Shown here: positions 31,426 through 36,492 of the stretch, one piece after another | Layout of the letters: every line of letters begins with the position of its first letter | Numbering within the stretch: position 1 is the stretch's first letter | NCBI RefSeq assembly: GCF_044324785.1 | Contig: NZ_CP172127.1 | Reading direction: 5' to 3' (one strand) | Length of the DNA stretch: 64,000 bases | DNA from: Escherichia coli | Lineage (GTDB): Bacteria; Pseudomonadota; Gammaproteobacteria; Enterobacterales; Enterobacteriaceae | Notes under the pieces: generated by a model | The model's database searches: none | What the model was told of the DNA's origin: nothing | Seen by the model: only the letters and a program-made list of their open reading frames with translations | Translations under genes and position numbers: made by a program

Positions 31426-32646
31426 ATGTCTCAGCCAATTACGCGTGAAAACTTTGATGAATGGATGATACCTGTTTACGCTCCGGCACCGTTTATACCG
31501 GTACGTGGCGAAGGTTCGCGCTTGTGGGATCAGCAGGGGAAAGAGTATATCGACTTCGCGGGTGGCATTGCGGTGAACGCGCTGGGCCATGCGCATCCGG
31601 AACTGCGTGAGGCGCTGAACGAACAGGCGAGTAAGTTCTGGCATACCGGCAACGGTTACACCAACGAGCCGGTACTGCGACTGGCGAAAAAATTGATCGA
31701 CGCCACGTTTGCCGATCGCGTCTTCTTTTGTAACTCCGGTGCGGAAGCCAACGAAGCGGCGCTAAAACTGGCGCGTAAATTCGCTCACGACCGCTACGGC
31801 AGCCATAAGAGCGGTATTGTGGCGTTTAAAAATGCGTTTCATGGTCGCACGCTGTTTACTGTCAGTGCGGGTGGGCAGCCAGCCTATTCACAGGATTTTG
31901 CGCCACTGCCACCGGATATTCGTCATGCTGCATATAACGATATTAACTCTGCCAGCGCGCTGATTGACGACTCTACCTGTGCGGTGATTGTCGAACCCAT
32001 CCAGGGGGAAGGCGGTGTGGTGCCAGCCAGCAACGCATTTTTACAAGGTCTGCGTGAATTGTGTGACCGCCACAATGCGCTGTTGATTTTTGATGAAGTA
32101 CAAACCGGCGTCGGACGCACCGGGGAACTGTATGCCTATATGCACTACGGCGTGACGCCCGATCTGTTAACTACCGCCAAAGCGCTGGGCGGCGGTTTCC
32201 CGGTCGGTGCGTTGTTGGCAACCGAAGAGTGCGCCAGTGTGATGACCGTTGGCACTCATGGCACCACCTATGGTGGTAATCCGCTAGCCTCGGCGGTAGC
32301 AGGCAAAGTGCTGGATCTCATTAACACGCCAGAGATGCTTAATGGCGTTAAACAGCGTCACGACTGGTTTGTTGAGCGCCTTAATACCATTAATCACCGC
32401 TACGGTTTGTTCAGTGAAGTTCGCGGCTTAGGTTTGTTGATTGGCTGTGTACTGAATGCCGATTACGCCGGGCAAGCGAAACAGATCTCTCAGGAAGCGG
32501 CGAAAGCAGGCGTGATGGTACTGATTGCGGGTGGCAACGTGGTGCGTTTTGCGCCTGCGCTCAATGTCAGCGAAGAAGAGGTGACGACCGGACTGGATCG
32601 CTTTGCAGCTGCTTGCGAACACTTTGTGAGCGGAGGTTCATCATGA
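31426..32646 (+). CDS. astC: Succinylornithine transaminase AstC (406 aa)
   Basis: Track ORF; class III PLP aminotransferase motifs; first gene of the ast operon. Confidence 0.93.
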
Positions 32647-33677
32647 TGGTCATCCGTCCCGTTGAGCGCTCAGATGTCCCGGCGCTGATGCAGCTTGCCA
32701 GCAAAACGGGCGGCGGCCTGACGTCGCTTCCCGCCAATGAAGCCACGCTTTCGGCGCGTATCGAAAGGGCAATCAAAACCTGGCAAGGCGAACTGCCCAA
32801 AAGTGAGCAGGGCTATGTGTTCGTGCTGGAAGATAGCGAGACAGGCACCGTGGCGGGGATTTGTGCCATTGAGGTGGCAGTTGGGCTGAACGATCCCTGG
32901 TACAACTATCGCGTCGGCACGCTGGTTCACGCTTCGAAAGAGCTGAATGTCTATAACGCGCTGCCGACGCTGTTTCTCAGTAACGATCACACCGGCAGCA
33001 GCGAGCTGTGCACGCTGTTTCTCGACCCGGACTGGCGCAAAGAGGGCAACGGCTATTTGCTGTCGAAATCGCGCTTTATGTTTATGGCGGCTTTTCGCGA
33101 CAAGTTTAATGACAAAGTGGTTGCCGAAATGCGCGGGGTGATTGACGAACACGGCTATTCACCGTTCTGGCAAAGCCTCGGTAAACGCTTCTTTTCGATG
33201 GATTTTAGCCGCGCCGATTTTCTCTGCGGCACCGGGCAAAAGGCATTTATTGCAGAACTGATGCCGAAACATCCGATCTATACCCACTTTTTATCCCAGG
33301 AAGCCCAGGACGTCATCGGTCAGGTACATCCGCAAACCGCGCCTGCCCGTGCGGTGCTGGAGAAAGAAGGTTTTCGCTACCGTAACTATATCGACATCTT
33401 TGACGGCGGGCCGACGCTTGAGTGTGACATCGACCGCGTGCGTGCCATCCGTAAAAGTCGGCTGGTGGAAGTGGCAGAAGGGCAGCCTGCGCAGGGCGAT
33501 TTCCCGGCCTGCCTGGTTGCCAATGAAAATTATCACCATTTCCGCGTGGTGCTGGTGCGTACCGATCCAGCGACCAAGCGTTTGATTTTAACCGCCGCAC
33601 AACTCGATGCCCTCAAATGCCACGCCGGGGATCGCGTTCGTCTGGTGCGCCTGTGCGCAGAGGAGAAAACAGCATGA
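32643..33677 (+). CDS. astA: Arginine N-succinyltransferase AstA (344 aa)
   Basis: Track ORF 32613..33677; start [12 protein letters not shown]; ATGA overlap with the astC stop. Confidence 0.92.
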
Positions 33678-35152
33678 CTTTATGGATCAACGGTGACTGG
33701 GTGACGGGCCAGGGCGCATTGCGTGTGAAGCGTAATCCGGTATCGGGCGAGGTGTTATGGCAGGGCAATGATGCCGATGCCGCTCAGGTTGAGCAGGCTT
33801 GTCGGGCTGCCCGTGCGGCGTATCCGCGCTGGGCGCGGCTCTCCTTTGGCGATCGTCAGGTAAGAGTTGAACGCTTTGCCGGATTGCTGGAAAGCAATAA
33901 AGCCGAATTAACCGCGATTATTGCCAGAGAAACGGGTAAGCCGCGCTGGGAAGCGGCAACCGAAGTGACGGCGATGATCAATAAAATCGCGATATCAATT
34001 AAGGCGTATCACGTTCGTACCGGCGAGCAGCGTAGCGAAATGCCGGACGGCGCGGCGAGCCTGCGACATCGCCCGCACGGCGTGCTGGCGGTGTTTGGGC
34101 CGTATAATTTCCCTGGTCATTTGCCGAACGGACATATCGTTCCGGCATTGCTGGCAGGTAACACCATTATCTTTAAACCCAGCGAACTGACACCGTGGAG
34201 TGGCGAAGCGGTAATGCGTTTATGGCAGCAGGCTGGCTTGCCGCCGGGCGTGCTGAACCTGGTGCAGGGCGGGCGTGAAACGGGTCAGGCGCTGAGTGCG
34301 CTGGAGGATCTCGACGGCTTGCTGTTTACCGGTAGCGCCAATACTGGCTACCAGTTGCATCGTCAGCTTTCCGGTCAGCCGGAGAAAATTCTCGCCCTCG
34401 AAATGGGCGGCAATAACCCGCTGATTATCGATGAGGTGGCGGATATCGATGCCGCTGTCCATCTGACCATTCAGTCGGCATTTGTCACAGCCGGGCAACG
34501 CTGCACCTGCGCCCGCCGTTTATTGCTGAAAAGCGGGGCGCAGGGCGATGCGTTTCTTGCTCGTCTGGTTGCCGTCAGCCAGCGATTAACGCCGGGCAAC
34601 TGGGATGACGAACCGCAGCCGTTTATTGGCGGGCTAATTTCTGAACAGGCCGCACAGCAGGTGGTTACTGCCTGGCTGCAACTGGAAGCGATGGGCGGAC
34701 GAACCCTGCTTGCGCCGCGCTTATTACAAGCAGGGACATCGTTGCTGACGCCGGGGATCATTGAAATGACAGGCGTTGCTGGCGTACCAGATGAAGAGGT
34801 GTTCGGACCGTTATTGCGCGTCTGGCGTTATGATACTTTCGATGAAGCGATTCGGATGGCGAACAACACCCGCTTCGGACTCTCTTGCGGTCTGGTTTCC
34901 CCCGAGCGGGAAAAATTCGATCAACTGCTTCTTGAGGCGCGGGCGGGGATTGTTAACTGGAACAAACCGCTTACCGGCGCTGCCAGTACCGCGCCATTCG
35001 GCGGCATTGGCGCTTCCGGTAACCATCGCCCCAGCGCCTGGTATGCCGCAGATTATTGTGCCTGGCCGATGGCGAGCCTGGAGTCGGACTCGTTAACATT
35101 GCCCGCCACACTTAACCCCGGGCTGGATTTTTCCGATGAGGTGGTGCGATGA
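33674..35152 (+). CDS. astD: N-succinylglutamate 5-semialdehyde dehydrogenase AstD (492 aa)
   Basis: Track ORF 33617..35152; start MTLWINGDW; aldehyde dehydrogenase catalytic Cys/Glu motifs; ATGA overlap with astA. Confidence 0.92.
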
Positions 35153-36492
35153 ACGCCTGGGAAGTCAATTTCGACGGGCTGGTAGGGCTGACGCATCATT
35201 ACGCGGGCCTGTCGTTTGGTAATGAAGCCTCTACCCGTCACCGTTTTCAGGTCTCTAACCCGCGACTGGCGGCGAAACAGGGCTTACTGAAAATGAAAAC
35301 CCTTGCCGATGCGGGATTCCCCCAGGCCGTGATCCCGCCGCACGAGCGTCCGTTTATACCGGTTTTACGTCAGTTGGGATTCAGTGGTAGCGATGAACAA
35401 GTGCTGGAAAAGGTTGCACGCCAGGCACCGCACTGGCTTTCCAGCGTTAGTTCCGCTTCGCCAATGTGGGTAGCCAATGCGGCAACGATCGCGCCATCTG
35501 CCGATACGCTGGATGGCAAAGTGCATCTCACCGTTGCTAACCTGAACAATAAATTTCACCGTTCGCTGGAAGCCCCTGTCACCGAATCGCTGTTAAAAGC
35601 GATTTTTAACGACGAAGAGAAATTTAGCGTCCATTCGGCGTTGCCGCAGGTAGCGTTGCTCGGTGATGAGGGGGCGGCAAACCACAATCGTCTCGGCGGT
35701 CATTACGGTGAACCGGGTATGCAACTTTTTGTCTACGGGCGAGAAGAGGGCAATGATACCCGGCCTTCCCGTTATCCAGCGCGGCAGACTCGCGAAGCCA
35801 GCGAGGCGGTGGCAAGGCTGAATCAGGTGAATCCCCAACAGGTGATTTTCGCCCAGCAAAACCCGGACGTTATCGACCAGGGCGTTTTTCATAATGACGT
35901 GATTGCCGTGAGTAACCGCCAGGTGCTGTTTTGCCATCAACAGGCGTTCGCTCGACAGGTGCAGTTACTGGCAAATCTACGTGCGCGGGTGAACGGTTTT
36001 ATGGCGATAGAAGTTCCGGCGACTCAGGTTTCCGTGTCGGATGCGGTGTCTACGTATCTGTTTAACAGCCAGTTACTGAGCCGCGATGATGGTTCCATGA
36101 TGTTGGTGCTGCCTCAGGAGTGTCGGGAACACGCAGGAGTATGGCGTTATCTCAATGAACTCCTTGCCGCTGACAACCCGATTAGCGAACTAAAAGTTTT
36201 TGATTTACGTGAAAGTATGGCAAACGGCGGCGGCCCGGCGTGCCTGCGGTTGCGCGTGGTGTTGACAGAAGAAGAACGCCGGGCGGTGAATCCGGCGGTG
36301 ATGATGAACGATACGCTGTTTAATGCACTCAATGACTGGGTGGATCGTTACTACCGCGATCGTCTTACTGCGGCGGATCTGGCTGATCCGCTGCTGCTGC
36401 GCGAAGGGCGGGAAGCACTGGATGTATTGAGCCAATTACTGAATCTCGGTTCGGTTTATCCGTTCCAGCGCGAGGGAGGGGGAAATGGATAA
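35149..36492 (+). CDS. astB: N-succinylarginine dihydrolase AstB (447 aa)
   Basis: Track ORF; [25 protein letters not shown]; ATGA overlap with astD. Confidence 0.92.

Follow-up and report, generated by a model that had tools for sequence, protein, structure and literature searches.

The astCADBE operon of Escherichia coli: overlapping gene junctions and probable termination-reinitiation between cistrons

The ast genes, their promoter and the operon end

The genes considered here are five consecutive plus-strand genes, in the order astC-astA-astD-astB-astE, which occupy approximately 31.4–37.5 kb of a 64 kb stretch of Escherichia coli DNA (contig NZ_CP172127.1, referred to throughout as the window) and encode the enzymes of the arginine succinyltransferase (AST) pathway.

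31426..32646, plus strand: astC, succinylornithine transaminase (406 aa; NCBIfam match)
32643..33677, plus strand: astA, arginine N-succinyltransferase (344 aa; PRK10456)
33674..35152, plus strand: astD, succinylglutamate-semialdehyde dehydrogenase (492 aa; NCBIfam match)
35149..36492, plus strand: astB, N-succinylarginine dihydrolase (447 aa; NCBIfam match)
36485..37453, plus strand: astE, succinylglutamate desuccinylase (322 aa; NCBIfam match)

AstC, AstA, AstD, AstB and AstE all exceed the curated cut-offs of NCBIfam equivalog or subfamily models, with full-length matches that begin at approximately profile position 1, and the gene identities first proposed from the DNA letters alone are borne out by these matches for all five proteins. 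The region represents, in a genome of the E. coli lineage, the chromosomal astCADBE operon, a set of genes that the literature describes as an operon. With positions 31000-37600 as a megablast query, it was found in 5,424 of 5,426 complete E. coli genomes at 95–99% identity, and the layout is the same in 5,421 genomes with at least 80% query coverage. The best match among the complete genomes is strain N3 (98.7% identity across the operon), for which the RefSeq annotation gives identical gene boundaries and overlaps and places the operon between xthA (upstream) and spy (downstream); astE is annotated as frameshifted in this strain, whereas that of the window is intact. The astCADBE operon of E. 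coli K-12, reportedly characterised by Schneider, Kiupakis and Reitzer in 1998 and by Kiupakis and Reitzer in 2002, has the same five genes in the same order, the same xthA and spy flanks, the same overlaps and the same sigma-54 promoter, and nothing of substance separates the two. Operon, promoter and overlaps are textbook E. coli features, the layout had previously been annotated, and nothing described here is new in kind.

Upstream of astC lies the promoter.

31338..31353, plus strand: sigma-54 promoter, TGGCACGAACCCTGCA, of the form TGGCAC-N5-CTGCA (−24 GG, −12 GC)

A sigma-54 promoter had been called at this position in the original prediction, and the call is borne out by uniqueness, by conservation and by a homologous site in Salmonella. 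The 64 kb window contains no second match to TGGCAC-N5-YTGCW, with 0.19 matches expected. The 58-nt block surrounding it (31316-31373) is almost invariant across five Enterobacteriaceae, with a promoter core that is itself invariant, and a similar site is present upstream of Yersinia astC. The aligned counterpart upstream of Salmonella astC, TGGCACGAATGCTGCAAT, was bound by sigma-54 in chromatin immunoprecipitation with microarray detection (ChIP-chip; PMC3844500), and astC is among the experimentally confirmed RpoN promoters in the literature. No match to the sigma-54 pattern was found upstream of astC/aruC in the scanned loci of Pseudomonas, Halomonas, Billgrantia, Vogesella, Marinobacter and Acinetobacter. 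Two blocks of the astC 5′ untranslated region, at 31382-31394 (ATTATTAACATAT) and 31405-31414 (TTATTTAC), are conserved across the five Enterobacteriaceae.

Beyond astE, a predicted RNA structure is likely to mark the end of the operon transcript.

37458..37483, plus strand: hairpin with an 11-bp stem (ACCCGCAGAAA/UUUCUGCGGGU), 5 nt past the astE stop (−18.6 kcal/mol, z = −6.4)

This hairpin was missed by a simple terminator scan because its T-tract is poor, and was detected by folding. Promoter-like and terminator-like sites inside the operon did not exceed the expectation from shuffled sequence, and an Rfam scan gave no known RNA family within it.

Overlapping junctions and translational coupling

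Every junction in the operon is an overlap. The arrangement at each is given below, together with the energy of the duplex between the Shine-Dalgarno (SD) sequence of the downstream gene and the anti-SD.

astC/astA, plus strand: stop TGA 32644-32646 over astA ATG 32643-32645 (ATGA, −4 nt) in the context ATGATG; ...ggaggttcatcATGAtggtc; SD −10.2 kcal/mol (GGAGG)
astA/astD, plus strand: stop 33675-33677 over astD ATG 33674 (ATGA, −4 nt); ...gaggagaaaacagcATGActtta; SD −9.1 kcal/mol (GAGGAG)
astD/astB, plus strand: stop 35150-35152 over astB ATG 35149 (ATGA, −4 nt); ...gaggtggtgcgATGAacgcc; SD −8.5 kcal/mol
astB/astE, plus strand: astE ATG 36485 before astB stop 36490-36492 (ATGgaTAA, 8-nt overlap); ...gagggagggggaaATGgaTAAtttt; SD −11.9 kcal/mol (GGAGG)

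The three ATGA overlaps and the 8-nt overlap of astB with astE had already been read from the letters, and both the sequence and the RefSeq annotation of strain N3 agree with that reading. The four SD sequences fall in the top 0.15–2% of all positions in the operon, and each lies inside the 3′ end of the preceding gene. The junction distances (−4, −4, −4 and −8 nt) are all inside the −8 to approximately +6 nt range of reinitiation-coupled pairs. Across the E. coli genome, distances from −8 to +6 nt are found in 707 of 2,987 unidirectional pairs (24%), with ATGA as the commonest configuration, followed by −1 and −8 (PMC10666635). Elsewhere in the window, overlaps account for 3 of the 29 pairs of adjacent same-strand genes in the homologous annotation, against four of four at the ast junctions (hypergeometric probability 8.6e-4). 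The run of four is beyond chance, yet unexceptional for an operon.

The overlaps would be artefacts of start choice if one or more of the ast starts were misannotated, and longer frames do exist, from TTG 32613 for astA and from ATG 33617 for astD. Both alternatives were ruled out as starts, since neither has an SD motif (−3.1 kcal/mol for the former, +0.3 kcal/mol for the latter) or support from homology. The profile matches begin at residue 1, with AstA residues 1-344 matching positions 1-344 of PRK10456 (NCBIfam), AstD residues 1-486 matching profile positions 1-486, and AstB residues 1-441 matching profile positions 1-442, the last six residues of AstB (EGGGNG, 442-447) lying past the profile. 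The astB frame is open for just 9 nt 5′ of its ATG and its next in-frame start is 48 codons further 3′, and astE has no alternative start within 32 codons, such that neither gene has another plausible start within 32–48 codons. In Yersinia, Serratia and Acinetobacter, at junctions that do not overlap, the upstream stop comes before the same conserved N-termini. The one ambiguity lies at astA, where ATGATG offers two possible starts, ATG 32643 and ATG 32646. The Met-Met that it encodes belongs to an MM(V/I) N-terminus of AstA that is conserved where astC and astA do not overlap, and use of the second ATG would still give an overlap, of 1 nt rather than 4. Re-annotation of the starts, the check on which the original prediction had staked its overlaps, was run, and profiles, SD sequences, open frames and homologue N-termini uphold the annotated starts; misannotation can be considered very improbable.

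Experimental evidence for coupling comes from Huber et al. 2019 (PMC6728339), in which astD/astB was one of five native E. coli ATGA pairs assayed. The construct joined two reporters through the 3′-terminal 99 nt of astD and the 5′-terminal 30 nt of astB. With a premature stop in the upstream frame, and with transcript levels comparable, translation downstream was extremely low or could not be detected; the strong coupling was ascribed to termination-reinitiation (PMC6728339). Removal of the SD sequence cut reinitiation by 60–90% in the E. coli pairs, with the exception of ydbH/ynbE and bioBF (PMC6728339). Spacers of 14–38 nt largely eliminate coupling, an overlap or a very short spacer being needed (PMC10666635). 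The tight coupling that had been claimed for the overlaps thus has direct support at astD/astB, from the reporter assay. For astC/astA, astA/astD and astB/astE we infer it by analogy, because overlap geometry and strong internal SD sequences are common to these junctions and astD/astB.

The interpretation that we favour, at a probability of roughly 0.78, is that the ast operon is transcribed from its sigma-54 promoter as one mRNA and that overlap-driven termination-reinitiation operates between its cistrons. A single polycistronic mRNA would run from the promoter at 31338-31353, with its end probably at the hairpin at 37458-37483. Each downstream cistron starts within the last codons of the preceding one, with a strong SD sequence embedded in the upstream gene; a ribosome finishing the upstream gene would most likely reinitiate on the next, and output of the AST enzymes would thereby be tied to translation of the preceding gene. 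Each of the AST enzymes of E. coli is a separate enzyme in one pathway, and in this the operon differs from the overlap-rich genes for heteromeric complexes. It is among the subunits of such complexes that overlaps of this kind are enriched (PMC10666635). In their distances of −4 and −8 nt and in the position of the SD sequence inside the upstream gene, the ast overlaps resemble the overlapping ATGA/TGATG pairs of Huber et al. 2019 and 2023.

Several points weigh against termination-reinitiation throughout the operon. The experimental evidence covers one of the four ast junctions (astD/astB), and the strong SD sequences at all four downstream starts could support independent initiation. Among the five E. 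coli ATGA pairs, bioBF was uncoupled and menDH just ~60% coupled (PMC6728339). Full coupling is not required for function, because other bacteria run the pathway with spacers, of 10–300 nt at most junctions, between the genes. The assignment of regulator sites upstream of the promoter, described below, is a provisional one from motifs and conservation. Lastly, fragments covering the four junctions (−99..+30) are predicted to be no more stable than dinucleotide shuffles (z = −1.03, +1.83, +0.75 and −0.72).

Coupling could also arise by RNA unfolding, where the upstream gene's translation opens up a structure masking the following start and a fresh ribosome initiates there, with no reinitiation by the same ribosome. 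In the minimum free energy folds, upstream sequence pairs with both the SD sequence and the AUG of astB, and a hairpin arm contains the SD sequence of astA; Huber et al. likewise predicted the start region of astDB to be stably structured (PMC6728339). The reinitiation and unfolding models are deemed unresolved, and not mutually exclusive, in a 2025 review (PMC12548453). However, in no case is the fold of a junction fragment, of the four examined, more stable than those of its shuffles, and the steep distance dependence of coupling favours reinitiation (PMC10666635). Occlusion of the start sites by RNA structure at the ast junctions is unproven, and we regard unfolding as a rather unlikely basis for coupling.

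In a further explanation, the overlaps would be a by-product of operon compaction, through stop loss and start drift, with little coupling and with de novo initiation of each gene at its own SD sequence. The strong SD sequences at all four starts are in keeping with it, as is bioBF, a published ATGA pair that is uncoupled (PMC6728339), whereas astD/astB, the sole ast junction to have been assayed, was strictly coupled (PMC6728339). The distribution of the overlaps among species provides further evidence on both sides.

Junction layout across species

At least 120 ast loci from species-representative genomes were found by a degenerate pattern for the AstB motif EVNFDGLVG. The ast homologues were identified by blastp, and their starts were placed by homology to the E. 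coli N-termini, also outside the enterics. Counts were made by genus-level group because Pseudomonas is over-represented in the sample, and those below are counts among the matches listed.

astC/astA: overlap in 4 of 13 genus-level groups, Enterobacteriaceae only
astA/astD: overlap in 11 of 17 genus-level groups, and 14 of 17 at +6 nt or less
astD/astB: overlap in 12 of 26 genus-level groups, mixed
astB/astE: overlap in 2 of 9 genus-level groups, Escherichia and Citrobacter only

Among these matches, the layout in which all junctions overlap is confined to Enterobacteriaceae, and the astA/astD overlap alone is widespread, in genera that include Yersinia, Acinetobacter, Pseudomonas, Halomonas, Vogesella, Aquitalea, Kiloniella and Aquisalinus, as well as others. 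The three ATGA overlaps are present in E. albertii, Enterobacter sp. Bisph1, Superficieibacter and Pseudescherichia, and two Citrobacter loci, in which the sequence covered the D/B and B/E junctions only, overlap at both (−4 and −8 nt, respectively). In Yersinia, Serratia, Acinetobacter, Pseudomonas and Halomonas, spacers are found at most ast junctions. The original prediction had coupling running along the whole pathway; this suits the overlap layout of the present lineage, but does not extend to the pathway generally, given the spacers in these five genera.

The 8-nt astB/astE overlap appears best explained by the loss of a stop codon common to Escherichia and Citrobacter, because AstB residues 442-447 lie past the profile and because relatives retain a stop and a spacer. 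In other Enterobacteriaceae, AstB ends ...FQR-TAA and is followed by a 9–10 nt spacer with an SD sequence before astE. The E. coli sequence of these 13 nt is GAG GGA GGG GGA A, followed by the ATG, and astB stays in frame as far as the TAA formed by astE codons 2-3. The resulting six-residue C-terminal extension of AstB is EGGGNG in E. coli (window 36472-36492) and an equal-length ETTSHG in Citrobacter.

A simple change from TAA to a sense codon, with spacing unchanged, thus accounts for the astB/astE overlap in the manner that compaction would require, and restriction of the all-overlap layout to Enterobacteriaceae, with spacers in the five genera named above, also fits a compaction by-product. 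Against this, the ATGA at C/A, A/D and D/B is invariant in every sampled Enterobacteriaceae locus despite differing flanking bases, and the overlap of astA with astD in 11 of 17 genera, among the matches listed, argues for its retention there by selection. Compaction with little coupling seems to us improbable.

Compaction and termination-reinitiation may also be combined, in a scheme that we put forward tentatively and as a possibility. The unbroken chain of overlaps would be a derived compaction of Enterobacteriaceae that became a ribosome relay, the astB/astE link having been added by stop-codon loss in Escherichia and Citrobacter, and the astA/astD overlap would be ancient and retained. 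If such a relay exists, translation of all five AST enzymes would hinge on initiation at astC, and retention of the astA/astD overlap across gamma-, beta- and alpha-proteobacteria would hint at a need to match those two enzymes. Between lineages, the spacing of the ast junctions varies from full overlap up to gaps of hundreds of nucleotides, and the operon would be a convenient natural series in which to ask whether overlaps are selected for enzyme stoichiometry or are mere compaction.

The aruCFGDBE genes of Pseudomonas encode homologous enzymes in the same order, and their aruG/aruD junction (the equivalent of astA/astD) overlaps by 1 nt in most of those sampled. They differ from ast in having two AstA paralogues, no sigma-54 motif 5′ of aruC, and spacers of 62–288 nt before the first AstA gene, of mostly 22–233 nt at D/B and of 309–380 nt at B/E. 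The aruB-aruE gap keeps to this last range consistently in 25 Pseudomonas loci, which leaves room for a small conserved gene or regulatory element.

In the draft assembly of E. albertii NBRC 107761, the astC start is ATA, not ATG, and the frame is shifted by the loss of 2 nt near codon 297; barring assembly errors, this astC appears to be a pseudogene. The astA, astD and astB genes of the same strain look intact and have the same overlaps, and astE runs off the contig end.

Candidate regulator sites and the rest of the window

According to the literature, NtrC activates the ast sigma-54 promoter from an upstream enhancer, and ArgR, CRP and RpoS also act on the operon. Binding of NtrC in the astC-xthA spacer has been reported by chromatin immunoprecipitation sequencing (ChIP-seq) and by genomic systematic evolution of ligands by exponential enrichment (gSELEX). 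The candidate sites in the window are as follows.

31103-31119 and 31123-31139, plus strand: two neighbouring NtrC-like dyads, TGCCCGCTTTTGGTGCG and TGCGTCAGAATGGCGCA, with their centres 20 bp apart
31151..31202, plus strand: conserved blocks AAATTTCG, GATCACAATTCCAGAATTATATTT and CTGCATAAC, in that order, a footprint across five Enterobacteriaceae
31243..31274, plus strand: conserved repeats and a 21-bp near-palindrome, ATATGCACTTTAAATGCATAT (31254-31274), a candidate ArgR operator
31285..31297, minus strand: IHF-consensus match at the motif level, AATCAAGGAGTTA, with 0 mismatches to WATCAANNNNTTR, between enhancer and promoter
31318..31327, plus strand: third copy of the repeat, exactly TATGCACTTT, directly adjoining the −24 element of the sigma-54 promoter; the copy at 31255 is 63 bp away

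The two dyads lie ~225–260 bp upstream of the expected sigma-54 transcription start. Each has 3 mismatches to TGCACC-N5-GGTGCA, and they are partly conserved in the enteric alignment. Taken singly, NtrC dyad matches with 3 mismatches are about as frequent as chance would give (26 against 30 expected); the paired dyads at 31103-31139 are the likely enhancer. The original prediction had placed plausible ArgR and NtrC sites in the repeats at 31230..31300, where motifs are indeed present and conserved, but the best NtrC-like dyads are those at 31103-31139 instead.

The conserved blocks at 31151..31202 contain a CRP-like TTCGT-N6-TCACA (31156-31171, 3 mismatches) with adjacent AT-rich sequence, and weak ARG-box-like matches. 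The repeats that follow are of the form TAT(T/G)CACTTT, with TATTCACTTT at 31244, TATGCACTTT at 31255 and the third copy, again TATGCACTTT, at 31318; this last lies outside the range first proposed and is conserved in all five enteric sequences. Within 31243..31274, ATTCA-N7-TGCAC fits the geometry of the join between two ARG boxes, and the palindrome at 31254-31274 has a centre of 5 nt, compared with 4 nt in the canonical ARG box. The ARG-box model used was two 18-bp imperfect palindromes (TNTGAATWWWWATTCANW), 2–3 bp apart. The ARG-box scan suggested at the outset was made with this consensus over the AT-rich segment, and neither single boxes nor pairs did better there than composition-matched shuffles: the best single box, with 4 mismatches, was matched by 1145 of 2000 shuffles, and the best pair, with 10 of 32 positions mismatched, by 262 of 2000. 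The main text of an ArgR ChIP-exo (chromatin immunoprecipitation with exonuclease treatment) paper has no ast entry. Control of ast by ArgR is reported in the literature, and it is on these reports that ArgR binding at 31243-31274 is considered likely; the repeats themselves are conserved. Conservation in the enteric alignment largely extends to the TAAC...TTGAT of the IHF-like site. From such motifs and their conservation we infer the regulator that each upstream block would bind.

In overall design, the ast promoter resembles NtrC/sigma-54 promoters of the glnAp2/glnHp2 type, with a −24/−12 element, paired NtrC-like dyads and an IHF-like or bending region between them. The NtrC sites of glnAp2 are closer to the promoter. 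By comparison, the ast dyads lie ~225–260 bp upstream and match the consensus weakly, and the ast region differs further in its intervening conserved blocks, which are attributed to ArgR and CRP in the literature.

Outside the ast region, a 1.2 kb copy of the insertion sequence IS5 occupies window positions 9507-10709 and shares 99.8% identity with the IS5 carried by E. coli TOK-001. To judge by the coordinates of TOK-001, the element has inserted within the 3′ end of ydjE; TOK-001 has its own IS5 elsewhere, plus an IS1 that is absent from the window. Rfam gave only one match in the 64 kb window, the small RNA ES036 (CssrF), at 40001-40043 on the minus strand between cho and nadE (42.9 bits; gathering threshold 37.6). 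The annotation of strain N3, the closest complete genome, records frameshifts in astE, chbC, cedA, ydiY and espL1. When the window is compared with the best complete E. coli genome, identity comes to 97.5% over 6001-31000, 98.7% over ast and 99.6% over 37501-62500 (strain N3), an unevenness that suggests either a recombination mosaic or a lineage, possibly Shigella-like, from outside the set of complete genomes.

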